Part shown: positions 6,972-16,588 of the stretch, in pieces
Layout of the letters: the number at the start of each line of letters is the position of its first letter
Numbering within the stretch: the stretch's first letter is position 1
Origin: a virus
Taxonomy: Duplodnaviria; Heunggongvirae; Uroviricota; Caudoviricetes
Direction: 5' to 3' (one strand)
IMG/VR virus record: IMGVR_UViG_3300045988_150638
DNA: 64,000 nucleotides
Translations under genes and position numbers: made by a program
Notes under the pieces: model-generated
Databases searched by the model: none
What the model was told of the DNA's origin: nothing
What the model saw: only the letters and a program-made list of their open reading frames with translations

Positions 6972-7334
6972 TCAGCTTTCGTTGGCATTTAACTTCGTCT
7001 TTGCTTTCTCCACCAGCAACTTCCAGATGCCTATTTCATTAGCAGCCGCCTTGATGGCGGCATAAAAAGCATCTTGCTGATCGTAACGCTGAATCTGTTT
7101 TTTCAGTTTTGCCTCCACCAATTTAATTTCATTACGTGCTTTCTGAAGCCGCAGCGCCGCCCGGTTACGTCTGTTCTTGTATAGCGCGTTAATCTCTGAT
7201 AATTGCTTTAATTTACCAGCCTGACTGCGGATTATCGCCTCTCTGACTTCTGCCGTGCGTCTCATCTGATCTCTTAAGAGTTCACCGTTTTCGATAATTC
7301 TTTCAAGGTGTTTGATGTGATCTGCAACTCTCAT
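6972..7334 (-). CDS. hypothetical coiled-coil protein
   Basis: 120-aa ORF, end overlaps the start of the upstream gene; charged heptad-like sequence. Confidence 0.45.
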   Translation of the reverse strand: MRVADHIKHLERIIENGELLRDQMRRTAEVREAIIRSQAGKLKQLSEINALYKNRRNRAALRLQKARNEIKLVEAKLKKQIQRYDQQDAFYAAIKAAANEIGIWKLLVEKAKTKLNANES

Positions 7335-8263
7335 ACTTCACCCTCGCTTGTATCGCCAGCATCCACCAGCGGCAATAAAGCCCTGGCCATCTTATGAACC
7401 AATAGTGCATCAATAATGCCAAGCGTATGCCCCGGCTTAATGTTTAATGCCGCCTCAAGGTGACACCTTTCCAGGCCACTTTTCTCGGCTTGTTTATGAT
7501 GATCTGGTGTAATAACGTCGCCCAAAACACGGCTAATTCTTTCTCGTAATTGCTGGGTGCCAGCACACTTGATCGCTGTATCGTGGAGACGGTTAACCAG
7601 TTCGCGATAAACATGCGGCTTAATTCGGATACGTTCACCGGTGACGCCCTTTCCTGGTGCTGGCACCGAACTATCCGGAATGTCCGGATAGTTGCCAGCC
7701 TCGTAAGCTACCCGCAGCCAGTGCATGAATGTTTCAGTGGACACACAACCACAGTCCACATCGATTTTCCCGCGTTGCTGTTCCAGCCATTGCCCAAAAT
7801 CCAACCTGTAAGTCTTACTTTCAAGTTCATCACCATTGAACTCGACTTTCTGCGACGCTATGAGAGCTGATTCGTATTGTTCGCGAGTGACAACTGACTG
7901 GTATTCATCGCTATCAAGGTCACCAATTGGAAGCTCAATCTCACAACAAAAATTGCGCCCAAAGAAAGTGTCTTTTTTGTGGTCTGAGCCAAAAGCAAAA
8001 GTCGCGCATGGTGCCATTAAATTGACACTGGGTAGGTAACAATAACTCATTCCATCAGGCCACCCGCCGCACTTAGGCAGCTCCTTCACTAACAAGTCGA
8101 TAAGCTTCATTTTTTTATCATCTTTGCAAGCCGCCAAAGCCATTTGGGCAAGTGCCAATACTTCATCTGCCGTATATCCAGCACCGTGACCATACATTTC
8201 GATACGGGAAATAATCTCTGATATACGCTCTTCAGTGATTCTGGTCATTTCTTTTTGCGCCAT
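7331..8263 (-). CDS. hypothetical Cys-rich protein
   Basis: 310-aa ORF in the leftward early operon; clustered Cys (CGGW, CC, DCGC); no recognised catalytic motif. Confidence 0.5.
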   Translation of the reverse strand: MAQKEMTRITEERISEIISRIEMYGHGAGYTADEVLALAQMALAACKDDKKMKLIDLLVKELPKCGGWPDGMSYCYLPSVNLMAPCATFAFGSDHKKDTFFGRNFCCEIELPIGDLDSDEYQSVVTREQYESALIASQKVEFNGDELESKTYRLDFGQWLEQQRGKIDVDCGCVSTETFMHWLRVAYEAGNYPDIPDSSVPAPGKGVTGERIRIKPHVYRELVNRLHDTAIKCAGTQQLRERISRVLGDVITPDHHKQAEKSGLERCHLEAALNIKPGHTLGIIDALLVHKMARALLPLVDAGDTSEGEV

Positions 8264-8619
8264 TTCTTTTCACATTCCTTAGTCCATTTTTCAATGTTCA
8301 TTTTGGCAATATCAGTCATTCCATCACCTAAGAAATACTTTCTCCGGTACGTCTTGCACTTAAACCACACTACAACAGCCACCAGCCAGAAAATAAAAGG
8401 CCATACAGCAATACCAACTCCAGCCGCGATAAAGCCCAATAGCCATAAATGAAGCTCTCCAACTTCTGTTTGCGGCAATATTCTTAAAGAATTAAGCAGC
8501 AGACTGAAGGAATAGTCGTATGCATTGGCGGTATAAGACATGCAATCCATATAATTAAAGTCATAGCCTGCGGCTGCCGCCCATAATGGGCGGTCAAGAA
8601 AATGTTTTAGTGTCATCAT
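8245..8619 (-). CDS. hypothetical membrane protein (2 TM helices, basic C-tail)
   Basis: 124-aa ORF; hydrophobic segments LWLLGFIAAGVGIAVWPFIFWLVAVVVWF; overlaps the downstream gene start. Confidence 0.45.
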   Translation of the reverse strand: MMTLKHFLDRPLWAAAAGYDFNYMDCMSYTANAYDYSFSLLLNSLRILPQTEVGELHLWLLGFIAAGVGIAVWPFIFWLVAVVVWFKCKTYRRKYFLGDGMTDIAKMNIEKWTKECEKKWRKKK

Positions 8620-8625
8620 ATAAAT

Positions 8626-9015
8626 TTAAGGTTCAGACCAGTTATCTTCAATAGCAATGCTTAATCTTTGTAGCCATTCTGCTAATTTCAGCATTGCTTC
8701 TCTTTCGCTTAAACCACGCGGGAAATCATCAAGCGCAATTGTTGGCTTGAAGTTCCCAAAATTATCCATTTCAACGGTCAGATTTTGCTCCAGCACGGTA
8801 TTCCTTACGCGGCTATTGTGCCGAAGCAAATATACTGAACGTGATTTATTGGTTTTGTGGTCGAGCTGATATTCGGTAAGTATCATCTGGCTTTTGCCAT
8901 GACTATTACCTCTCCACATACCTACCTCACTTAATAAAACAACTCCATGCGTAGTTGATGATTTTTCCCCACGTAATATAAATCTGCACTCCGGCAGTAA
9001 AACCAAAGCCAACAA
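8626..9015 (-). CDS. hypothetical protein
   Basis: 129-aa ORF (possible internal start); same strand and operon context. Confidence 0.4.
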   Translation of the reverse strand: MLALVLLPECRFILRGEKSSTTHGVVLLSEVGMWRGNSHGKSQMILTEYQLDHKTNKSRSVYLLRHNSRVRNTVLEQNLTVEMDNFGNFKPTIALDDFPRGLSEREAMLKLAEWLQRLSIAIEDNWSEP

Positions 9016-9097
9016 TTGCTGAAAAAATCAAAGCATTTACTTTTGACATTATAAATTTTCTCTCGGCGTCGTAGGTGATAGCACCATAATTGATAAT

Positions 9098-9349
9098 TTA
9101 GTGAGTTAGCAGTTCCATTTTTTGGATGATTTCCGCATGAGCATCATCGTTATCAACACTTAAATCGTTTAATGCCTTTCGCACTACATCAACTTCTTCT
9201 GGTTGGAAGAAGTCATCTCGGTAGTCACCAAATAGAACCGAAACAAGCCTGCCACCAGCAACATCAAGATTGGCGCTAACAGGTGGCTCTTTGCCATCCT
9301 CAAATTCGACTACAAAAGTTATTTTTCCCATCGTTACCACCAGCGACAA
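9098..9349 (-). CDS. hypothetical protein
   Basis: 83-aa ORF in operon context. Confidence 0.4.
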   Translation of the reverse strand: MSLVVTMGKITFVVEFEDGKEPPVSANLDVAGGRLVSVLFGDYRDDFFQPEEVDVVRKALNDLSVDNDDAHAEIIQKMELLTH

Positions 9350-9413
9350 ATTGAATACAAACCCAGTGCTGCCGCCATCACAATTCCTACCGTTGCGAAT
9401 GCTTCAGGCCAGC

Positions 9414-9959
9414 TCATTGACCTGCCTCCTGGGAAGGTTCTGGTAGCAGCATCCAGAACAAGGCGTTCCCTAACCAGGATAAAGTGCCGTCGCTCAACTC
9501 CACGTATTCCCCTTGCACCTGTCCTGCCATATACTCACCGTGCTTTGAATAAATTAAAATCCAATCATCTTGAGCGGGCATTCGCTCACTACAGCTTATC
9601 CAACCATCCGGAGTTACCGGAGAGTTGCCATTCACAAGGTCAGCTCGAACATATAGCGTGTCATCATGGTGCTGATTGTGGCTGCACCACGTTAATTCGC
9701 TTAACTCGCCATTTTCTGGCCATACTCCAGCCGTTTGCAGCCAGATATGGGCTGGCGCATCCTGGCAAGGTGTATTAACTGGAAACTTGTAAGTTTGGCT
9801 TACAGGTTCTGCACTATCAGCTTCGCGCCGCTTCTGTAGCTCTGCTGCCATCGCTCTCACGACTTCAACTGGTGCCCTTGCAGCAAACTCTATGTTGGTG
9901 ATCAGCTCATTAAGATATTGCTCGCCTGGATACTGTTTCTTATCGGTTATAGTGGTCAT
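9414..9959 (-). CDS. hypothetical protein, possibly DUF551-like C-terminal domain
   Basis: Start at MTTITDKK with the recurrent AAAGGAGAGTGATATG junction; Trp-rich C-terminal region. Confidence 0.45.
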   Translation of the reverse strand: MTTITDKKQYPGEQYLNELITNIEFAARAPVEVVRAMAAELQKRREADSAEPVSQTYKFPVNTPCQDAPAHIWLQTAGVWPENGELSELTWCSHNQHHDDTLYVRADLVNGNSPVTPDGWISCSERMPAQDDWILIYSKHGEYMAGQVQGEYVELSDGTLSWLGNALFWMLLPEPSQEAGQ

Positions 9960-9960
9960 A

Positions 9961-10557
9961 TCACTCTCCTTTTCCCTGAAGCATAGCGGCACGGCAGGCG
10001 TTCCAGCCTCTCACCTCTGCAATAGCGGCAACAGCATCGACCGCGTACATGCTAAGAGGATTAGGCATTGGTTTTTCTTCCGGTACTACTGGAACGAGGG
10101 GAGCGGCGTAGACCTCAATAATTCCATTATCAATAGGCCATTCTCCATCCTTGAGGTAGTCACTTGTGCCGTCAACTTGCTGTTCTGCAATGTGGAATGC
10201 ACCTATTGGTTTTGCTTCCAGCGATGCCAGAGCAATTCGTGCCAGTTCTTCCGCTTCTTCTGCTGGCAGTACAACGTTGCTACCAGGTCCGTATGTTTCG
10301 CGCCACTGCTTGATTGTCAGCAGTCGCTCTTTGGTTATAGTGGTCATGGGTTTTCCATCCGCCATCTCTTCATCGGTTTCCCATAAAACTCGCGCCTGCC
10401 CCTCACAGACTTGAATGACTCCGCCACGACCGCAGGAGTTGCACTTAACGGCATCGTCATCCCACAAGGCGGTTTCATTTCCGCGAGCTGTTTTGACCGT
10501 GTGTGATTTATTCCCGCAGCGGCATTTGTTGAGCCAGTCAATAGTGAAAGTTTTCAT
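9961..10557 (-). CDS. hypothetical protein with N-terminal zinc-ribbon-like CxC...CxxC
   Basis: 198-aa ORF; ends KGE-stop at the conserved junction; ATGA overlap with upstream gene. Confidence 0.45.
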   Translation of the reverse strand: MKTFTIDWLNKCRCGNKSHTVKTARGNETALWDDDAVKCNSCGRGGVIQVCEGQARVLWETDEEMADGKPMTTITKERLLTIKQWRETYGPGSNVVLPAEEAEELARIALASLEAKPIGAFHIAEQQVDGTSDYLKDGEWPIDNGIIEVYAAPLVPVVPEEKPMPNPLSMYAVDAVAAIAEVRGWNACRAAMLQGKGE

Positions 10558-10781
10558 GATGCCTCTCCTTTACCCGCTGCTTTCGCCTGCTCTTTAGCAA
10601 GTCGCTCCGCTTCTCTGAAATCCCAATCCACTCGATGTGCTATATCAATTGCAGAGCGCACGGTTCGCTCAATTAGCGTATCCAGATTGTCAATTGTCAT
10701 TGCCATATCTGGATTGCGAGATAAAATCTCCGCCCTCTGAATCTGCCAGTTGTTGCAGGTTTCAAGTAATGAGTTAGCCAT
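10554..10781 (-). CDS. hypothetical small protein
   Basis: Start MANSLLETC preceded by AAAGGAGAGTGAT; 75 aa. Confidence 0.4.
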   Translation of the reverse strand: MANSLLETCNNWQIQRAEILSRNPDMAMTIDNLDTLIERTVRSAIDIAHRVDWDFREAERLAKEQAKAAGKGEAS

Positions 10782-10782
10782 A

Positions 10783-10977
10783 TCACTCTCCTTTAGTGCG
10801 CAAGTGGTTTTTCCAGCGGTTTTGCGCCGCGCTGGGCTTTTTGCAAAAACCACAATCCATCATCCCGTAATATTTCATCAACCCCATCCGTCGGTTGCTG
10901 AGTCTCACCCACTGCCAGACGCCAGGAGCGTTTCTACGAACTAACAGAATCTTTGCTTTACGGTTGTTGGTTGCCAT
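10783..10977 (-). CDS. hypothetical small basic protein
   Basis: 64 aa (MATNNRKAKILLVRR...KGE) with the same junction/RBS cassette; the longer listed ORF 10783..11313 overlaps the upstream gene and is less plausible. Confidence 0.4.
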   Translation of the reverse strand: MATNNRKAKILLVRRNAPGVWQWVRLSNRRMGLMKYYGMMDCGFCKKPSAAQNRWKNHLRTKGE

Positions 10978-10978
10978 A

Positions 10979-11599
10979 TCACTCTCCTTTGATGCGAATG
11001 CCAGCTGCGCTTGCTGATTCTTCATATGCGCGTTTAGCAGCGTTAAGGATTGCTGCCAGTGGCGTATAGCCGCCATCCATTCGGATTGTGTTGTGGATGC
11101 CAGCCATTGTGTTGCGCAATTTTCTGTGGCTAGCAGACAGTTCTGCAATGCGCTTCTCTGCGGCTTCCAGCTTCTCGCGCATATCGTCAACGTACTCGAC
11201 CAGAGAACGGCCAGCAGGAATTTCGCACTCCTCGACCAGTTGGAAGTAGATATCAGCTGCGGCCCGTGTGTTGCTATGCCTAGCGTCGCCCATCTCACCT
11301 TCACGAAGAGCATCGCGTTCGGCGGTAAGATTGGCTATTTTGCTGTCTTTGCCTTCCAGCTCAACGCGAAGCCTCCCTACCGTTAGCGCAATTTCCTCGT
11401 TCTCCTGGTCACGGCGTTTGATGTATTGCTGGTTTCTTTCCAGTTCATCCAACAATGCCAGCGCGATATCTGGCGAAAAGTGCTTCATAAAATCGTTAAG
11501 CGCATTAATTCGCTGATCGAAAGGCATTACAGGTGCTTCACCAGCAATTTTTGTTTTTTCAGCGATTTCACGAAGCTTTTGATAATCAATCTTGCTCAT
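10979..11599 (-). CDS. Ead/Ea22-like early protein, paralog 1
   Basis: 206 aa; N-terminus MSKIDYQKLREIAEK shared with two neighbouring genes; coiled-coil centre. Confidence 0.45.
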   Translation of the reverse strand: MSKIDYQKLREIAEKTKIAGEAPVMPFDQRINALNDFMKHFSPDIALALLDELERNQQYIKRRDQENEEIALTVGRLRVELEGKDSKIANLTAERDALREGEMGDARHSNTRAAADIYFQLVEECEIPAGRSLVEYVDDMREKLEAAEKRIAELSASHRKLRNTMAGIHNTIRMDGGYTPLAAILNAAKRAYEESASAAGIRIKGE

Positions 11600-12297
11600 T
11601 GGATGACTCCTTTACGAAGCTGTTCGGCGATATCTTCGAGAACGCCATCAGAGAATGAACGGTCAAAATCGCCTTCCGGCGCATTGGCCATAAACTCAGT
11701 AGAGGTAAGAATCATCCGGGCAATATCCGCAGCGTTCTTCGCAGTATCATCAATAAAACCAGCTTTCCAGGCTGCCAACATTCTGTTCGCCACAAAATAA
11801 GCGCCTTCCTTGCGTGCTTCAGTCTTCACTTCAGCTAGAAAAGCATCGGTAGCTGGAGTTTCGCTGTGGTGCAGGGCATCGTTGATAATCATTGCAGCAA
11901 CTCCGGCCTGCCCTGCATCCGTGACCGACACATGCTCAAGAGTTACGGCCATTGCGTGTTTCAGCCCGGCGTTCTCTGCCACCAGCGCCGCGAGATTAGT
12001 CTCAAGCTCTGCAATTCGACACATAGCATCAATATTTGTGTCCTCCAGGCACTTAATTTCACCAAGCAGCTCCAGTGCAACCTTTGGGTTGAACGCGGCA
12101 ACATGACGAGCGTTGTTCTCTGCATTTTTCTGTCCATCAAAGCCGGTCCATTTGATAACGTCTTCACATCGTTCATCACCGGGCGTGTGCACCGCATAAG
12201 TACCAGTCTCCGTCGAAATAAATGCGACCCATTCGTCTGGTGTTGCCTTTTCTGCCGCCTCACGCAGTACCTGATAGTCAATTGTCATTCTCGCCAT
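11596..12297 (-). CDS. Ead/Ea22-like early protein, paralog 2
   Basis: 233 aa; N-terminus MARMTIDYQVLREAAEKATPDEWVAFI; C-terminal ETPATDAFLAEV...EQLRKG shared with the 12926..13699 gene. Confidence 0.45.
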   Translation of the reverse strand: MARMTIDYQVLREAAEKATPDEWVAFISTETGTYAVHTPGDERCEDVIKWTGFDGQKNAENNARHVAAFNPKVALELLGEIKCLEDTNIDAMCRIAELETNLAALVAENAGLKHAMAVTLEHVSVTDAGQAGVAAMIINDALHHSETPATDAFLAEVKTEARKEGAYFVANRMLAAWKAGFIDDTAKNAADIARMILTSTEFMANAPEGDFDRSFSDGVLEDIAEQLRKGVIQ

Positions 12298-12929
12298 CCT
12301 TCACAGTTGTAATCACTACAGCCTTCAAAATCATATGGGCTGTACTGCCAGGTTATTTTTCCGCAATGCGGACAATTCCAACGCACCTTCCCGCTTCGCG
12401 ACTTCTTTCTTCTGTTCTGCTCTTCCAACCAGTCAGGCATGACCAAACCTGCGCCCTGAACCATTGTTCTGCGGTTAAAGTTATTGATATTGAACGTCCG
12501 GCGCTTTGCTGAATCAGCAATGGAAAATGGCAACCAAACTATTCCTGGTTCGTTTTTGTTGGCGACGCTAAAGATGGTCGCTTTACTGAAGTCATCTGTT
12601 GGCAATCCACCGTGTTGAAGCCAGTAAACATCGTTGCCGTTCCAGCTACCTTTTTTGTAGGCCACATACGCAGTGCAATCTGGCTCAATCAGGTTTTCTG
12701 TAGGGATGTACTGGCAATCAACGTGCCACACAGCCATTGCATCCACGCTATCAGCGCAAACAGGCTGATCGATATCTCGACCACAATTCCAGGCTTTTTG
12801 GGCTTCTTCCAGCGTGTAAACATGAGCGCGATCGATATTAGAACTGTAACCATTGCCGTTATGGCAATGGAATGAAGCGTTATTACCCACAGTTTCACGC
12901 AAGCACATCATGTAAAAGCGGTTATTCAC
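12285..12929 (-). CDS. hypothetical protein with C-terminal CxxC...C zinc-finger-like motif
   Basis: 214-aa ORF in operon; WNCPHCGK near the C-terminus. Confidence 0.4.
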   Translation of the reverse strand: MNNRFYMMCLRETVGNNASFHCHNGNGYSSNIDRAHVYTLEEAQKAWNCGRDIDQPVCADSVDAMAVWHVDCQYIPTENLIEPDCTAYVAYKKGSWNGNDVYWLQHGGLPTDDFSKATIFSVANKNEPGIVWLPFSIADSAKRRTFNINNFNRRTMVQGAGLVMPDWLEEQNRRKKSRSGKVRWNCPHCGKITWQYSPYDFEGCSDYNCEGWRE

Positions 12930-13699
12930 TGGCTGCCTCCTTTGCGAAGCTGGGCAGCAAAGTCAACTAACCACTCAGTCATTTCAACCTTCCCTACCAG
13001 GTCTGAACCAGGGTGCATACAGCAATCACTCTGCGCCGCTTTGAAATCCTTACACTCATATTCTTGGGCCACCAGATTTTTTGCAGCTTCTATAGCAGCA
13101 TCCACCCCCTGCGCCCGGACTTCAGCCAGGAAAGCGTCGGTGGCTGGGGTTTCGATATTAGGCAGAAGCGCATAATCGCAAATCGTATCGATCGCAGGAT
13201 CACAACAGTCATCCTCGTTGCGTGGTCGTTCGCCAACCTTCGTTGACGATTGCATGATGATTCCCCAGCAAATACTATCGACCTCTTCGCTCCATCCATC
13301 GCAAGCATCACCGCGATAGTCGTCGATTGCAGCCTCAGCCGATTCGATAGCTTCCTCAGCAGTTTTGTGCCATTCGAAATTATGCTCAGAGCCATATGAG
13401 AAATATGAATGTCCCGCCTTCAGCCCCGCATTCTCAGCAGCCAGCGCCGCGCACTTGGCCTCAAGAGCGGCAACCACTTCCTGATGGTCTTTGTACTTAA
13501 CGTATGAGCCGGAGATGTCATCACCTTCGGTGTTTAGCCATGCGTCATTGCAATTCACTGCGTAGGTTCTGATGCTCATGCTGATGCTCTCCCGCCTCTG
13601 ACAGACGCCAGGCCAGTCAATAAAGTATCCGCAATGCCTACCCTCAGACGTGCGCGCAGGATAAATGCCGTTATGACCGGCAAAATATATGCTACCCAT
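12926..13699 (-). CDS. Ead/Ea22-like paralog 3 (main frame); conserved N-terminus lies in a different frame at 13758..13576
   Basis: C-terminal ETPATDAFLAEVRAQ...AAQLRKGGSQ is paralogous to 11596..12297; the family N-terminus (SKINYQELREAAEQATQDEWVAYI) is encoded upstream in another frame. Confidence 0.4.
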   Translation of the reverse strand: MGSIYFAGHNGIYPARTSEGRHCGYFIDWPGVCQRRESISMSIRTYAVNCNDAWLNTEGDDISGSYVKYKDHQEVVAALEAKCAALAAENAGLKAGHSYFSYGSEHNFEWHKTAEEAIESAEAAIDDYRGDACDGWSEEVDSICWGIIMQSSTKVGERPRNEDDCCDPAIDTICDYALLPNIETPATDAFLAEVRAQGVDAAIEAAKNLVAQEYECKDFKAAQSDCCMHPGSDLVGKVEMTEWLVDFAAQLRKGGSQ

Positions 13700-13744
13700 T
13701 CATCTTGCGTTGCCTGTTCCGCCGCCTCGCGCAGTTCTTGATAG

Positions 13745-14332
13745 TTAATTTTGCTCACTGGTTGCCCCCTGAATACGCTTAAACTCGATTACCCACACCC
13801 AAGGATTAGCGTTCCAACTATCTTCGCCATAAATTGATTTCCATAGGCTACGGAAACTTGGGTAATGCTTATCGCCAATGAGGGTCGATTCTGTTGGTGC
13901 GCCCTCAGCCCTTGCATCGCATTCGCTGATATCGTTCAACCGCTCAACGCGCACGTTGGTAATTTCCAGAAGAATGCGCGATGCCCAGCGCGGCATGTGA
14001 ATTGATGGCGTCCACTTTTCTGATACTGGTTTATTACAAACCTCGACCGGAACCCGGTGCGTTTGTTCTGTCCAGGAGTTACGCACGCTTGCGCGATAAA
14101 CCAGCGTTGCGACGTCCGTCGCTTTGCCATGTACCCGGTAGGTTTCGCGAACCCAAATACGATCGCCCGGCTGACCATATGGACAATGCTTGGCAAGCAA
14201 CTCTGCGGCTACTGCCCGTCCATAGAATTTTTCTTCAACAATCCTGCGAGTCTGTGTTTTATTCCCGCCAAGAATTGCCCGGACCATCTCATCGTTAAAA
14301 ATCATGCCGCGCTCTTTCACTTCGCCTTTCAT
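13745..14332 (-). CDS. hypothetical protein, possibly ASCH-like
   Basis: 195 aa; N-terminal MIFNDEMVRAILGGNKTQTRR resembles ASCH-type phage proteins; weak. Confidence 0.35.
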   Translation of the reverse strand: MKGEVKERGMIFNDEMVRAILGGNKTQTRRIVEEKFYGRAVAAELLAKHCPYGQPGDRIWVRETYRVHGKATDVATLVYRASVRNSWTEQTHRVPVEVCNKPVSEKWTPSIHMPRWASRILLEITNVRVERLNDISECDARAEGAPTESTLIGDKHYPSFRSLWKSIYGEDSWNANPWVWVIEFKRIQGATSEQN

Positions 14333-14341
14333 ACATCACCC

Positions 14342-14428
14342 TTACCCATGTGCGACGATGCCGCCAAAAGTGATAGAGAACAGCCAGAAATAGATCGCGG
14401 CCATAATGATTTTGAATGCCGTGTTCAT
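14342..14428 (-). CDS. 28-aa hydrophobic peptide (MNTAFKIIMAAIYFWLFSITFGGIVAHG)
   Basis: AGGAG RBS 8 nt upstream; preceded on the same strand by a C1-operator-like site and an 8-bp perfect hairpin (14458..14478). Confidence 0.3.
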   Translation of the reverse strand: MNTAFKIIMAAIYFWLFSITFGGIVAHG

Positions 14429-14510
14429 ATTTTCAGCTCCTGTGATTGATTGGATACATGCCGCGCCTTGCGGCATGTTTTAATTTTCACTTTCTCTGTT
14501 TTAAAAATCA

Positions 14511-14527
14511 AGATTTATTAGAGCAAT
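14511..14527 (-). promoter_or_regulatory. C1-operator-like site (agatttattagagcaat, 1 mismatch)
   Basis: 16/17 match to the recurrent 17-mer; overlaps the stop codon of the upstream gene. Confidence 0.5.
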
Positions 14528-15033
14528 TATTGTTGATGAAGAAGTGCATTTTCATATTCCCTGACCATTAACGTAAGTACGCCGTGACTCCTGAAAACAC
14601 GCGCCACTTCAATCTTATCTTCCAGCGCGAACGCAATTTTACTTAGACCAATTTTCTTCAGGAGATCAATCTTTGCAGGGCCGTCATTTCTGTCATCGGT
14701 GGCAGGACGCATAGATAGCAAAGGCTCAGCCCCATTTGTTACGTGCTTACGCAACCAAGCTCGTGTTTTATCCCTGGCTATCTCACAGCGCCCGGTTACA
14801 AACCAGAGCGTGTAAATGCTGGACAACTGGCGCACCATATCAATAACTGGAGTGATGGGAGCATCAGTGTCACAGGCAAGGTTAAACTCGTTCCAGTGCT
14901 CTGTTAATGCACCTTTGCCAGGTGGTGGAAGTAAATGCAGCCTGTCTTCCGTTGCCTCTGATATCGTTCCATCAATATCTACTATGACGATGTACGGACG
15001 TTCCTGGTGTGCGTGTTTATTGAAAATACTCAA
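14527..15033 (-). CDS. pap: HAD-superfamily phosphatase (Pap-like)
   Basis: 168 aa; motif I VDIDGT typical of HAD phosphatases; position matches P1 pap. Confidence 0.5.
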   Translation of the reverse strand: MSIFNKHAHQERPYIVIVDIDGTISEATEDRLHLLPPPGKGALTEHWNEFNLACDTDAPITPVIDMVRQLSSIYTLWFVTGRCEIARDKTRAWLRKHVTNGAEPLLSMRPATDDRNDGPAKIDLLKKIGLSKIAFALEDKIEVARVFRSHGVLTLMVREYENALLHQQ

Positions 15034-15105
15034 ATGCCCTCCTCATTGGACGAAAAAAATGCTGGTGGGCGCACTCCACCAGCATTAAAAGTGACACTGT
15101 AACTA

Positions 15106-16368
15106 TCAGCGAACGTAAATAGTGCCGCCGTTCTCTTTTTCCCATGCATCGCTACGTGCATAGCAAACATCGAGAAGTCTTCTTGCCGCAGTTTCCTCTA
15201 AACCCAATTCGACAACCAACTGCTCATGACGGCGGGTAACCACATCAAACAGGGTATGCAGCCCTTTAGTTGCCAGATCATCAATGAATTCCGGTTCGAA
15301 CGGCAGCTCTGCATCTGCCAACATAACCTCTTGCGCCCACTCAACTCGACGGACCAGTTCCGGGCGGCGGCTTTCCATCTCTTTACAGATCAATTCATGG
15401 AAGAACTCTACCCAACCTTCCGGCTGGAACTCGCGGAAAATTGCCAACGGCTGGAAGTTTGGCATCAACCATTCGTTGATTCGGATATCAATGGCATAGC
15501 CCATGTCGCAGCAGAACTGATAAGCAAAGTCCAGCTTAGAAACGATATAAGGACGCTCGTTATTGAACTCTTTAGGCGATGAGATCCCATAAGCCAGGAG
15601 GCGCGGGAAGAAGGAGATTTGCCCTAACGTCGGATGAAGTTTGCTTGCAGGGAAACGGCGCTCAGTAATGCCATACATTTCCTTCTTGAGCGTCGCAAAT
15701 TTGGCATTCTCATTAACCAGCGCGGTAACCTCTGCTTTTTTATTAGCAAATGCCACGCGCGCCTCGCTTGCATCTTTAATAGTTTTTTTGAGCTGTTGGT
15801 TAAGGTCGGCGACCTGCTTACGCAGTTCCTGTCGCTCGCTTTTAGCTTTGTTATAGCGTTTCTCAAGGTTAAAAGGATCAAGTTTCATGATCTCTTTATA
15901 TTGAGATTTTAGCGTTGAAATCTGTGAGTTCCGCAGTTCAACCATCGCGGTCATTTCATTGAGTTTTGTTTCCAGCTCAATGCTTATACGTTCGGCATTA
16001 TCAGCTCGCTGGTTGGCGTCATGCGTCGCATCGTCGATCGCGTCCTGTTGCTGGCGTTTCAAATGTTCAATTTGCAGCTGAAGCTCTTCAATTTCTTTAC
16101 CCTTCAGACCGAGATCCAACTGCATATTTTCAGCTGCATCTACCAGGGAGTTATGGCTATCAGCTTCTGCGTTATAAACATCAATAAGCTGTGCGTGAAG
16201 CATCTCCGCTGACTGAACCGCATTATCAAAAAAACGTGCTGTGAGGTCATCACAACTAACGCGGCGTTGCGCGGCCCGGATGTTCTGGATAATGGCCGGG
16301 ATACCGGCATTCAGGACATCAGGGATAGATACATTTTCGATTGATTGGTTTTGTGCTGAAGTGCTCAT
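15106..16368 (-). CDS. hypothetical protein with long central coiled coil
   Basis: 420-aa ORF; repeated Q/E/K-rich heptads. Confidence 0.5.
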   Translation of the reverse strand: MSTSAQNQSIENVSIPDVLNAGIPAIIQNIRAAQRRVSCDDLTARFFDNAVQSAEMLHAQLIDVYNAEADSHNSLVDAAENMQLDLGLKGKEIEELQLQIEHLKRQQQDAIDDATHDANQRADNAERISIELETKLNEMTAMVELRNSQISTLKSQYKEIMKLDPFNLEKRYNKAKSERQELRKQVADLNQQLKKTIKDASEARVAFANKKAEVTALVNENAKFATLKKEMYGITERRFPASKLHPTLGQISFFPRLLAYGISSPKEFNNERPYIVSKLDFAYQFCCDMGYAIDIRINEWLMPNFQPLAIFREFQPEGWVEFFHELICKEMESRRPELVRRVEWAQEVMLADAELPFEPEFIDDLATKGLHTLFDVVTRRHEQLVVELGLEETAARRLLDVCYARSDAWEKENGGTIYVR

Positions 16369-16369
16369 T

Positions 16370-16588
16370 TCAAAGTTCCGTATTAGCTTGTGCTTCGGTC
16401 ATTTTTCCTAAGTATGAAGGAGGAAGGACTACGCAATTTGTATCCAGTCCCTCACCTATGGCAGCCTGTAAAATTCTGGCTAAGGTGAGTCTCTTGTTGC
16501 GATACCTGGTGATGACATGCCTGATACCGCCGGTCGGCGTAACAAAGGCGATCAGCCAGTAGTGATATTTCCGTCGGAATGGCCACAT
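16370..16588 (-). CDS. hypothetical small protein
   Basis: 72-aa ORF immediately upstream of 15106..16368. Confidence 0.35.
   Translation of the reverse strand: MWPFRRKYHYWLIAFVTPTGGIRHVITRYRNKRLTLARILQAAIGEGLDTNCVVLPPSYLGKMTEAQANTEL

Follow-up and report, generated by a model that had tools for sequence, protein, structure and literature searches.

Repeated gene junctions, mosaic Ead/Ea22-like paralogs and a widespread split allele in an accessory operon of a P1-like phage-plasmid

The analysed DNA (64,000 nucleotides, here called the window) contains a run of small minus-strand genes in which an Ead/Ea22-like N-terminus recurs three times, once in a different frame from its body, and in which a short sequence recurs where one gene ends and the next begins. 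Were these genes assembled by the exchange of cassettes, as a preliminary description of the region proposed, and is the broken gene still used?

The window is a P1-like phage-plasmid. P1 proteins are collinear along it: pmgS, pap, an N-terminal homolog of PmgT, an insert and a C-terminal remnant of PmgT, and then in P1 order pmgU, pmgV, upfM/N/O, hot, humD, phd and doc. The insert is a block of ~5.5 kb in the pmgT region (about 13758-8263, minus strand), with pmgS, pap and a C1 operator upstream.

14511..14527, minus strand: C1 repressor operator; heads the operon with the cluster and overlaps the pap stop
13745..14332, minus strand: 195-aa gene homologous to P7 Upf86.8 and to the first 232 residues of P1 PmgT

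The operator, ATTGCTCTAATAAATCT, differs from the C1 operator consensus at one position, and 11 C1-operator-like sites are found in the window against 0.27 expected. An operator is annotated at the equivalent position in both P1 (OpmgT/Op88) and P7 (Op(hea)). The 195-aa gene matches phrog_874, its product is 46.6% identical to residues 1-232 of P1 PmgT (tblastn), and the DNA identity of its region to P7 is 97.8%; over its last 14 nt it overlaps the start of the split Ead gene. Among P1-like elements the interval from pmgT to humD has been published as a variable region, where pmgT is replaced by clusters including an ea22-like gene (PMC9603915). Variable region 8 (pmgT to humD), the P7 'hea' operon (upf86.8 to upf89.x) and the JL22 pmgT replacement all lie after pap and the C1 operator, as here. 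P7 has Upf86.8, Upf87.6 and the Ead-like Upf88.3 in the same order as the window, but has upf87.4 at the place that the split Ead gene takes in the window. The region forms part of a C1-repressed early operon, belongs to the pmgT variable region and is the equivalent of the P7 'hea' operon, with accessory genes of lambdoid type. None of the phage or plasmid records covers 80% or more of positions 9000-15000, the best matches being broken into 5-10 pieces, and the gene content of the block is a new combination. The suggested comparison with P1 upfM/upfN/pmgU was uninformative, as these genes lie at 7666-6349 in the window and are unrelated.

13576..13758, minus strand: A60, 60-aa N-terminal fragment of the split Ead/Ea22-like gene A, GTG start; PF13935, phrog_14804
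12926..13579, minus strand: A body, 217-aa ORF, its ATG overlapping the A60 stop (ATGA, 13576-13579)
12285..12929, minus strand: X, 214-aa gene between two Ead genes, P7 Upf87.6 homolog; phrog_2457, E = 1.9e-118
11596..12288, minus strand: B, intact 230-aa Ead/Ea22-like gene; PF13935 full profile, phrog_368
10979..11599, minus strand: C, intact 206-aa Ead/Ea22-like gene; PF13935 full profile, phrog_250
13419..13473, minus strand: coiled-coil homology island (…ALAAENAGLK), in B at 11960-12014; repeat D1
13119..13154, minus strand: ETPATDAFLAEV homology island, in B at 11828-11863

The open reading frames had been placed correctly (13576-13758, 12926-13699, 11596-12297 and 10979-11599, all on the minus strand); the start of B is likely the ATG at 12288, which overlaps the stop of X. 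A six-frame regular-expression search for the block [IT][DN]YQ.LRE.A found exactly three in the 64 kb, at 13749, 12282 and 11590, and Pfam PF13935 (Ead_Ea22) matches all three N-termini, so the three-member family stands. The match covers the full profile in B (E = 6.6e-24) and C (E = 1.2e-18), and profile positions 1-28 only in A60 (E = 1.6e-8). The phrog_368 match spans positions 1-29 for A60, 101-239 for the A body and 2-239 for B. The C-terminal sequence ETPATDAFLAEV...QLRKG, ascribed earlier to all three genes, is common to the A body and B only (two of three paralogs); C ends differently, in ...AAGIRIKGE, without it. In the proposed DNA alignment of the paralogs, A and B resemble each other only in short islands, of which there are four: the N-terminal block with 82% over 74 nt, the coiled-coil segment with 76% over 55 nt, ETPATDAFLAEV with 86% over 36 nt, and the QLRKG junction. 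C has only a weak N-terminal match to the others.

As described earlier, the N-terminus and body of the third copy are in different frames. Residues 1-27 of A60 are Ead sequence and residues 28-60 are out of frame. In intact relatives ...EWVAYILPGHNGIYP... is encoded by CCGGGTCAT, and the window has CCGGTCAT instead; this deletion, at codon 27/28, splits the gene into the 60-aa N-terminal ORF and the 217-aa body, whose intact counterpart (P0025) has 273 aa.

13677..13678, minus strand: 1-nt deletion site, GG against GGG in intact relatives; 91 IMG/VR contigs compared

The open frame 13699-13580 was considered as a chance extension of the body and rejected, since it encodes ancestral Ead sequence, GHNGIYPARTSEGRHCGYFIDWPG, seen in intact relatives. 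A60 matches phrog_14804 over its full length (E = 1.2e-41), and the exact protein is found on 304 contigs from many sources. The A body includes a helical segment, an unannotated conserved domain, ETPATDAFLAEV and QLRKGGSQ; it is identical to RefSeq WP_225394389.1, occurs exactly on 24 contigs and has 3442 homologs found. Its AlphaFold model is poor (pLDDT 59) and lends no support to any function.

The deletion is not peculiar to the window. The same GGG-to-GG allele is present in the complete RefSeq plasmids NZ_CP101271 and NZ_CP085058 and in 7 of the 91 IMG/VR contigs, 60 of which are in frame. Others carry TTTT to TTT (4), ACGGC to ACGC (1) or a TG insertion (18); at least three further indels within a stretch of ~60 nt are also common. 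Every split allele stops at one ATGA (13576-13579 in the window), and only the frame reached by -1 or +2 is open to it. Exact split products were found on 304, 741, 31, at least 999 and 390 contigs and exact intact proteins on 395, 283, 895 and 380; the two kinds of allele are about equally abundant. What breaks the frame of this Ead/Ea22-like gene is a real and widespread deletion of one base.

The TGA of A60 overlaps an in-frame ATG, with a GGGAGAG resembling a Shine-Dalgarno sequence (SD) 9 nt upstream, and for this reason the body is most likely still made. Because all the indels shift into the frame that stops at this ATGA, the 217-aa body is probably still translatable, and translated, from the split allele. 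Termination and reinitiation at 13576-13579 would make a body without the Ead N-terminal domain. ATGA and GTGA stop-start overlaps with translational coupling are found in many phage and bacterial operons; unlike these, the overlap at 13576-13579 sits inside a single gene of the intact relatives. A doubtful but serious alternative is that gene A is a plain pseudogene, with the 60-aa ORF and the body as undecayed remnants and the ATGA overlap a coincidence. With the frameshift the beta-strand part of the Ead N-terminal domain is lost, and lambda Ea22 is inactive without its N-terminal parts (PMC10834534). One relative (L107) carries a frameshift plus a truncated body, and two bodies recur with identical sequence in both split and intact loci; some splits are therefore recent, and the body could be a young pseudogene. 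However, four independent indels (five with L107) all enter the single frame ending at the ATGA, and all lie upstream of the body ATG, in about 20% of the gene. Decay also fits poorly with the abundance of split alleles, with the at least 9 different, uninterrupted body variants linked to them, and with a body pN/pS of 0.12 among split carriers. The downstream ORF is uninterrupted wherever it lies fully inside the contig (27 contigs and the window; in the remaining contigs it runs off the end). Intact downstream ORFs and a low pN/pS could also result from recent frameshifts or from recombination with intact alleles.

The genes of the block are joined by the following sequences, downstream of which further cassette genes are found.

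12926..12943, minus strand: A to X, second junction type AAAGGAGGCAGCCAGTGA; codons K-G-G-S-Q, stop overlapping a GTG start
11596..11613, minus strand: B to C, second junction type AAAGGAGTCATCCAATGA; QLRKG-type
10975..10990, minus strand: C to D, junction 16-mer AAAGGAGAGTGATATG; codons K-G-E, stop, then the next ATG
10779..10794, minus strand: D to E, exact copy of the 16-mer
10554..10571, minus strand: E to F, variant junction AAAGGAGAGGCATCATGA, at the end of E
9957..9972, minus strand: F to G, exact copy of the 16-mer, outside the interval first described
10783..10977, minus strand: D, 64-aa cassette gene bounded by two 16-mer copies; phrog_1380
10554..10781, minus strand: E, 75-aa cassette gene with AAAGGAGAGGCATCATGA at its end; phrog_10585
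9961..10557, minus strand: F, 198-aa gene; PHROG profiles begin at residue 71
9414..9959, minus strand: G, 181-aa DUF551-containing gene; PF04448, E = 1.7e-8

Four consecutive junctions had been reported as identical. The 16-mer has three exact copies in the window, and a variant lies at the fourth junction; what all four have in common is AAAGGAGAG. The accompanying proposal that the K-G-E codons double as the next ribosome-binding site holds, as AAA GGA GAG with the TGA carries the SD of the following gene. At both junction types the upstream gene ends (K-G-E or K-G-G/V-x-Q) spell the ribosome-binding site AAGGAG(G) of the next gene, and the stop adjoins or overlaps the start that follows (TGAtATG, ATGA or GTGA); X overlaps its neighbours by GTGA upstream and ATGA downstream. 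From 13758 to 9414, nearly every junction has a stop-start overlap or 1-nt spacing with the SD inside the upstream coding sequence. Because gene ends spell the next ribosome-binding site and stops abut or overlap the next starts, these genes, packed end to end, are probably translationally coupled. F is apparently an in-frame fusion of two modules; the 15-mer ATGACCACTATAACC is found inside F (10333-10347) and at the start of G (9945-9959).

The same 16-mer joins many other genes. The related loci contain 106 occurrences, connecting 19 upstream ends with 15 downstream starts in 28 pairings, and among the matches listed in an unbiased IMG/VR scan there are at least 120 occurrences and at least 75 distinct pairings, between at least 55 upstream gene ends and at least 42 downstream gene starts. 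We did not find the 16-mer named in the literature searched. In one relative a C-type Ead gene is followed directly by E, D being absent, and D itself recurs at 99.5% identity in CP099080 and a P1-like phage, both with different neighbours. Compared with P7, upf87.4 is replaced by the A gene, and identity ends and resumes at or within two junction sequences, resuming exactly at the A to X junction. X, which has no match in a Pfam search, is 98.1% identical to P7 upf87.6 at the DNA level. These observations support the cassette shuffling proposed earlier.

In enterobacterial phages the short junction sequences are common to many unrelated genes, and three intragenic Ead/Ea22 islands (the N-terminal block, ...ALAAENAGLK... 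and ETPATDAFLAEV) are likewise widely common. According to the pile-up of alignment endpoints and to alignment A1, the coiled-coil and ETPATDAFLAEV islands are recurrent intragenic crossover points; one of the endpoint histograms is biased, as its loci were chosen by similarity to gene A. Homology between relatives starts and stops at junctions and islands, and this mosaic pattern indicates an exchange of cassettes, both of entire genes and of gene segments. Some lambdoid module exchanges have been explained by flanking short conserved sequences, and RecET recombines homologies of 5-13 bp (PMC2327257). As in lambdoid modular evolution, short sequences shared at boundaries flank the exchanged modules; unlike the lambdoid boundary sequences, those in the window are C-terminal codons, SD, stop and start at once. 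Such a pattern would result if enzymes of the Red/RecT type carried out short-homology or homeologous exchange and working joints were then selected.

We consider it unlikely that the repeated junction merely reflects convergence on a strong SD, a stop and a well-spaced start, with illegitimate recombination and selection and no role of the junction in recombination. That model of phage mosaicism is accepted (discussed in PMC2327257), SD, stop or start make up 12 of the 16 positions, and many breakpoints also lie inside genes. Under random recombination with only functional joints surviving, breakpoints at gene boundaries are expected as well, and the 16-mer copies could owe part of their identity to convergence, SD, stop and start being functionally constrained. 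However, the unconstrained positions are also identical (AG after GGAG, the T spacer, the choice of TGA), and other junctions of the same operon have different, equally good solutions. Moreover, one upstream end is found with several downstream genes, and the reverse, always via the identical 16-mer, and P7 identity ends and resumes within junction sequences.

All three Ead/Ea22-like genes have the same orientation, lie near one another and share the N-terminal block, as tandem duplication within the element followed by divergence would leave them. Such an origin is nevertheless improbable, because similarity between the genes is restricted to islands of 36-74 nt, the unrelated gene X separates A from B, and each gene or gene part has relatives of at least 97% identity in different plasmids and prophages. 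Elsewhere, Ead genes commonly stand in tandem in other combinations. By this comparison of sequences, the genes are separately acquired mosaic paralogs and not a local tandem duplication.

Two further explanations of the break in A fare worse. Whether -1 or +2, all the alleles call for one and the same -1 correction, as programmed -1 ribosomal frameshifting, or transcriptional slippage, into a full-length protein would require. This is very improbable, as reading the sequence directly between the indel sites and the stop revealed no X XXY YYZ slippery heptamer, the only nearby hairpin is a weak 5-bp stem, the homopolymers GG and TTT are too short for slippage, and the indel positions differ, so that the wild-type sequence would not be recovered by a shift at any one site. 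A sequencing or assembly error in an intact gene, which the preliminary description had allowed for and a short GGG homopolymer might invite, can practically be dismissed given the identical allele in two RefSeq plasmids and 7 IMG/VR contigs, the exact 60-aa product on 304 contigs with its own PHROG family, and a RefSeq protein matching the 217-aa body.

The closest known proteins are lambda Ea22 and P22 Ead (PF13935, IPR025153), encoded in the lambdoid exo-xis region; B and C match the whole profile and A60 its first 28 positions. Like them, the window proteins have a short N-terminus that is conserved, followed by a helical or coiled-coil middle and a C-terminal part that varies. The ea22 genes of Stx phages are similarly mosaic, with common N-terminal and coiled-coil regions and unrelated C-terminal domains (PMC10834534; PMC7093339). 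Unlike the lambdoid genes, those in the window are in a P1-like plasmid prophage under a C1 operator and not between exo and xis, and there are three paralogs in one operon, one of them split. A search for similarity between the window proteins and the solved C-terminal domain of lambda Ea22 found none, and the pro-lysogenic function has been shown for the lambda and Phi24B Ea22 proteins themselves.

In summary, the earlier observation is partly confirmed, and its interpretation is supported for the family, the frame disruption and the shuffling. The block is an ordinary, highly mosaic set of small accessory genes in a P1-like phage-plasmid, and the recurrent split is the only mildly new point. 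We hold it likely that this is a C1-repressed, P1-like accessory operon shaped by shuffling of cassettes at junctions and islands, with separately acquired paralogs and a split A body that is probably still made. By analogy with lambda Ea22, the Ead/Ea22-like proteins probably form coiled-coil oligomers, carry exchangeable C-terminal heads and would act on host or phage development early after derepression.

The minus strand carries all real genes from 16368 to 7300. Mapping the P1 proteins onto the window shows that the P1 order is kept on both flanks of an accessory block, from pmgS to lpa, with pmgU (95% identity to P1), pmgV (100%), upfM/N/O (98-100%) and also hot, humD, phd, doc and lpa present. 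The features around the block are listed here.

Features flanking the accessory block.
16368-15109, minus: pmgS, 99.8% identity to P1
15033-14530, minus: pap, 95% identity to P1
14511-14527, minus: C1 operator ATTGCTCTAATAAATCT, one mismatch to the consensus, overlapping the pap stop and heading the operon
14332-13796, minus: 195-aa gene, homolog of PmgT residues 1-232, 46.6% identity
7331-8263, minus: 310-aa ORF, a different N-terminus fused to the C-terminal part of PmgT
7707-7477, minus: within the 310-aa ORF, the C-terminal 77 residues of PmgT (232-308), 93.5% identity

The operator is annotated in the same place in P1 (OpmgT/Op88) and in P7 (Op(hea)), and the window holds 11 C1-operator-like sites (at most three mismatches to the P1 consensus) versus 0.27 expected. 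Because of the flanking genes in P1 order and the operator at the pap stop, we place the block, some 5.5 kb long (13758 to about 8263), in a P1-like phage-plasmid, where it interrupts or replaces pmgT within a putative C1-controlled operon. pmgT itself is mosaic and divided, its two parts flanking the whole block. Two of the eleven C1-operator-like sites, on opposite strands, overlap at 30127-30154, an arrangement that a P1-type immunity circuit would predict.

The region from pmgT to humD is one of the eight published hypervariable regions in P1-like elements, and for JL22 an ea22-like replacement of pmgT is on record (PMC9603915). Among 50,697 phages and 72,556 plasmids no record covers 80% or more of 9000-15000, and the best matches are patchworks of 5-10 pieces each at 94-98% identity. 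The block combines known parts in a new way, in a hypervariable region already known. A small hydrophobic ORF, MNTAFKIIMAAIYFWLFSITFGGIVAHG (14342-14476, minus strand, ATG at 14428), lies after the C1 operator and before the operon's first large gene, and the same gap contains a perfect, GC-rich 10-bp hairpin (14456-14478) with a terminator-like score on the plus strand. No Rfam family matches in 7000-16500; within the cluster, promoter-like sites are fewer than in shuffled sequences and no convincing terminator was found.

In a six-frame search the window yields exactly three [IT][DN]YQ.LRE.A blocks (13749, 12282 and 11590). They belong to three Ead/Ea22-like genes, of which B and C are intact and A is split into a 60-aa ORF (A60) and a longer body.

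Genes of the block and their matches to PF13935 (Ead_Ea22); membership means a score above the gathering score of 27 bits.
13576-13758, minus: A60, PF13935 positions 1-28 only, 35.7 bits, E = 1.6e-8
12926-13579, minus: A body, 217 aa, no PF13935 match on its own (Pfam profile search)
12285-12929, minus: X, a 214-aa gene between A and B
11596-12288, minus: B, full PF13935 profile, positions 2-138 of 139, 85.5 bits, E = 6.6e-24
10979-11599, minus: C, full PF13935 profile, positions 1-138, 68.5 bits, E = 1.2e-18
10783-10977, minus: D, small cassette gene
10554-10781, minus: E, small cassette gene
9961-10557, minus: F, 198-aa gene
9414-9959, minus: G, 181-aa gene with a DUF551 match

PF13935 is present in intact relatives of A (P0065, P0068, P0117 and P0135), and a single family, phrog_368, links the pieces, with A60 covering its positions 1-29, the A body 101-239 and B 2-239. 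The N-terminal likeness reported in the preliminary description is upheld by the three profile-matching N-termini. At the DNA level the likeness of A to B is confined to four islands.

DNA islands common to A and B.
Island 1: N-terminal block, 82% over 74 nt
Island 2: coiled-coil segment, A 13419-13473 and B 11960-12014, 76% over 55 nt
Island 3: ETPATDAFLAEV, 86% over 36 nt
Island 4: QLRKG junction

C has just a weak N-terminal match to A and B at the DNA level, ends in ...AAGIRIKGE and lacks ETPATDAFLAEV; the C-terminal ETPATDAFLAEV...QLRKG, earlier ascribed to all three genes, is shared by A and B but not by C. With DNA identity restricted to short islands, a local tandem duplication is rejected, and the three paralogs are mosaic genes acquired separately. 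Gene X is unrelated to the Ead genes and 98% identical to P7 upf87.6. It has no Pfam or NCBIfam match; P7 annotates upf87.6 as a putative tyrosine phosphatase, and the C-terminus of X is Cys-rich (CPHCG...CSDYNC). P1 upfM, upfN and pmgU, which had been suggested for comparison, occupy 7666-6349 and are no relatives of the Ead genes.

The frame disruption proposed for the third copy is borne out. Intact relatives fetched from IMG/VR read through as VSKIDYQALREAAEQATQDEWVAYILPGHNGIYPARTSEGRHCGYFIDWPGVCQGRESINMSIRTYAVNC... In addition, P0025, an unbroken protein of 273 aa, has the body found in the window copy. The window differs from the intact genes by the deletion of one base, TTGCCGGGTCAT to TTGCCGGTCAT, with the leftover GG at 13677-13678. 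The ancestral frame is the 60-aa frame before the deletion and the long-ORF frame after it; the long-ORF frame is open from 13699 because the ancestral sequence continues there past the deletion. RefSeq annotates the same pair, a 60-aa 'ead/Ea22-like family protein' and a 217-aa hypothetical protein (WP_225394389.1), and A60 has a 60-position PHROG family of its own, phrog_14804. The allele is found in the complete plasmids NZ_CP101271 and NZ_CP085058, and the exact 60-aa sequence on 304 contigs of a 15-billion-protein collection. A sequencing error is ruled out by these many independent assemblies. Programmed -1 frameshifting and transcriptional slippage are likewise excluded: there is no slippery heptamer X XXY YYZ between 13700 and 13576, the sole structure being a 5-bp hairpin at the deletion site, and the indels in different alleles lie at different positions. 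This hairpin, TGCCG/CGGCA (13666-13682, minus strand), brackets the deletion site.

Scanning IMG/VR with a pattern for the N-terminal segment turned up 91 contigs, and exact N-terminal products were counted in the 15-billion-protein collection.

Alleles of the split gene: contigs in the IMG/VR scan; contigs with the exact N-terminal ORF.
In-frame: 60; not applicable
GGG to GG (the window's allele): 7; 304
TTTT to TTT: 4; 741
ACGGC to ACGC: 1; 31
TG insertion, CATTGCGG to CATTGTGCGG: 18; at least 999 and 390 (two N-terminal backgrounds)

By contig count the split form is about as frequent in nature as the intact one, four common intact proteins occurring on 395, 283, 895 and 380 contigs. Three of the four indel alleles lie within TTTTGCCGGGTCATAACGGCA, a short quasi-palindrome with homopolymer runs and perhaps a local hot spot for indels. 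Each of the four indels shifts the frame by -1 or +2, and all therefore enter one frame. In the intact sequence this frame stays open from about codon 22 as far as the TGA of an ATGA; several early stops interrupt the other frame. The N-terminal ORF of every split contig (60-61 aa) terminates at this same ATGA. The downstream ORF is uninterrupted in the window and in 27 of the 27 contigs that contain it fully, with at least nine different variants of the body; in three other split contigs it runs off the contig end. A separate relative (L107) has a fifth frameshift, slightly further downstream, together with a truncated body (two lesions), and one in-frame contig is apparently truncated at ...QEYEC. 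Eight distinct 501-nt bodies of split alleles differ by 43 synonymous and 19 non-synonymous changes (pN/pS 0.12), which is weak evidence for constraint after the split, since two split-allele bodies are identical to bodies at intact loci and inherited or recombined variation could explain the ratio. Given these identical bodies, the time since the frameshift may be short. A decaying pseudogene, which would show relaxed selection and further disabling mutations beyond the first lesion, is a less likely reading of the split alleles.

At the ATGA (13576-13579) the TGA stop of A60 overlaps an ATG in the body frame, with GGGAGAG 9 nt upstream. This is the geometry of translational coupling, a stop on the next start with a ribosome-binding site (SD) within about 5-12 nt upstream, and it is the same at the other junctions. 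The body would be made from this ATG by termination-reinitiation. We read the gene fission as real and tolerated, possibly favoured, because the body would still be translatable by this predicted route. It is also conceivable, if doubtful, that the split is no accident and is a recurrent, selected fission that detaches the Ead N-terminal domain and leaves the coiled-coil and C-terminal body expressed. At least four independent indels within about 60 nt (the deletions of a G, a T and a second G, and the TG insertion) and the presence of split alleles in thousands of E. coli prophages and P1-like plasmids would fit such selection. Its reason might be the avoidance of mixed oligomers with co-resident Ead/Ea22 paralogs, or escape from a host defence that recognises the conserved N-terminus, and the internal junction-like SD-ATGA might act as a pre-adapted switch between fused and split states. 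The internal SD-ATGA resembles the junction between E and F, and it is speculation that it is a relic junction. No locus supports its origin from a once separate gene starting MSIRTY, and an unrelated gene ending at the internal TGA was not found in any locus checked.

The other junctions have a common design. Each upstream gene closes with codons (K-G-E or K-G-G/V-x-Q) that read AAGGAG(G), and its stop touches or overlaps the next start.

Gene junctions.
C to D, D to E and F to G: AAAGGAGAGTGATATG
E to F: AAAGGAGAGGCATCATGA
A to X: AAAGGAGGCAGCCAGTGA
B to C: AAAGGAGTCATCCAATGA
Upstream gene to A60: GGGGGCAACCAGTGA
G to next gene: CAGGAGGCAGGTCAATGA

An identical sequence had been described at four consecutive gene junctions; this holds for three of them but not for the fourth, the exact 16-mer occurring only three times in the window. 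Related loci (1.27 Mb) contain it 106 times, joining 19 upstream C-termini to 15 downstream N-termini in 28 combinations. There, the end of D, …NHLRTKGE, is followed by three different genes, and a C-type Ead end leads straight into gene E, as loss of D between two 16-mers would produce. An unbiased scan for exact matches in IMG/VR gives at least 120 occurrences, in which at least 55 upstream ends meet at least 42 downstream starts in at least 75 pairings.

Cassettes also seem to be fused. In F, matches to phrog_5117, phrog_3323 and phrog_660 all begin at residue 71. The 15-mer ATGACCACTATAACC that starts G (9945-9959) has an exact copy inside F at 10333-10347, around which GGAAAACCCATGACC resembles the F to G junction GGAAAAGGAGAGTGATATGACC minus the SD and the stop. 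F is apparently two cassettes fused in frame, and mirrors the split in A. In one IMG/VR relative (94-nt allele, 145-aa body) the split Ead body ends with the C-terminus of D, …AQNRWKNHLRTKGE, which is another fusion between cassettes of the set.

Ends of similarity fall at the same kinds of sites. Identity to P7 is 97.8% from pmgS to ...CAACCAGTGAG, the first bases of A60, where it stops, and resumes at 98.1% at GGAGGCAnCCAGTGAATAAC, the A to X junction; in place of the split Ead gene P7 carries upf87.4. The D segment (10777-10968) recurs at 99.5% identity in CP099080 and also in a P1-like phage, with other neighbours in both. Further high-identity segments end in the N-terminal block of B (12210-12252), at the QLRKG junction (11622-11632), at ETPATDAFLAEV (13147-13153) and in the coiled-coil island (13419-13473). 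Modular N-terminal, middle and C-terminal parts are visible in an alignment of 25 proteins (A1), where at ...ALAAENAGLK at least five unrelated N-terminal modules adjoin one conserved central domain, which between AEVRAQGV and FAAQLRKGG passes into at least six different tails. The cassettes form a mosaic. Mosaic ea22 genes with common N-terminal and coiled-coil parts and unrelated C-terminal domains are known from Stx phages (PMC10834534), and both exchange via short conserved flanking sequences and short-homology recombination by Red/RecET are established ideas (PMC2327257). Following this literature, short-homology exchange at the conserved junction sequences would account for the mosaic. 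The same pattern would result from random breaks that selection filters, combined with convergence of translation signals, and we regard this as rather unlikely. The recombination-driven shuffling of cassettes put forward in the preliminary description is supported by the many pairings of the 16-mer and by breakpoints at junctions.

As to function, beyond family membership NCBIfam gave no match and PHROGs solely families of 'unknown function'. Against all PDB sequences, phmmer found nothing below E = 0.2 for B, C or an intact A-type protein. Homology to the solved C-terminal domain of lambda Ea22 was not found in these proteins (phmmer), which is compatible with membership of the Ea22 family since Ea22 variants differ in their C-terminal domains (PMC10834534). 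Lambda Ea22, the characterised member of the family, has three parts, a separate C-terminal domain following a short N-terminal segment and a central coiled coil. The AlphaFold2 model of the A body (25-sequence alignment, mean pLDDT 59) has a long helix at 32-54 and C-terminal helices at 145-213, and only the latter are confident. Residues of about 55-160 (13420-13110, minus strand) form a strongly conserved domain, GHSYFSYGSEHNFEWHKTAEEA...DDYRGDACDGWSEEVDSICWG...CDYALLP, with low AlphaFold confidence. This domain has no Pfam family; its 3442 homologs are mostly 'hypothetical proteins' of E. coli prophages, on at least five N-terminal modules. Lambda Ea22 is an early, tetrameric, pro-lysogenic protein (PMC7093339, PMC10834534), and deletion and complementation experiments on Ea22 have been done for lambda and Phi24B (PMC7093339). 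By analogy, the paralogs probably form oligomeric coiled-coil scaffolds, with heads that can be exchanged, and would be expressed when C1 repression is lifted.

The preliminary observation is real, with three corrections, and its interpretation is supported. For the most part the block confirms, as a clean example, the textbook idea that accessory genes of temperate phages and phage-plasmids are built from cassettes. Its joints are unusually explicit, one short sequence serving as C-terminal codons, ribosome-binding site, stop and start. Cassette assembly explains the hypervariability of this P1 region and the scattering of 'ead/Ea22-like' labels over fragments by automatic annotation; the 60-aa 'ead/Ea22-like family protein' recorded in hundreds of genomes represents the front half of a gene that has been split. 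We found no description of same-frame recurrent splitting at an internal ATGA restart in this Ead/Ea22 subtype. Should the recurrent split prove to be selected, it would offer a modest natural example of gene fission kept by translational coupling.
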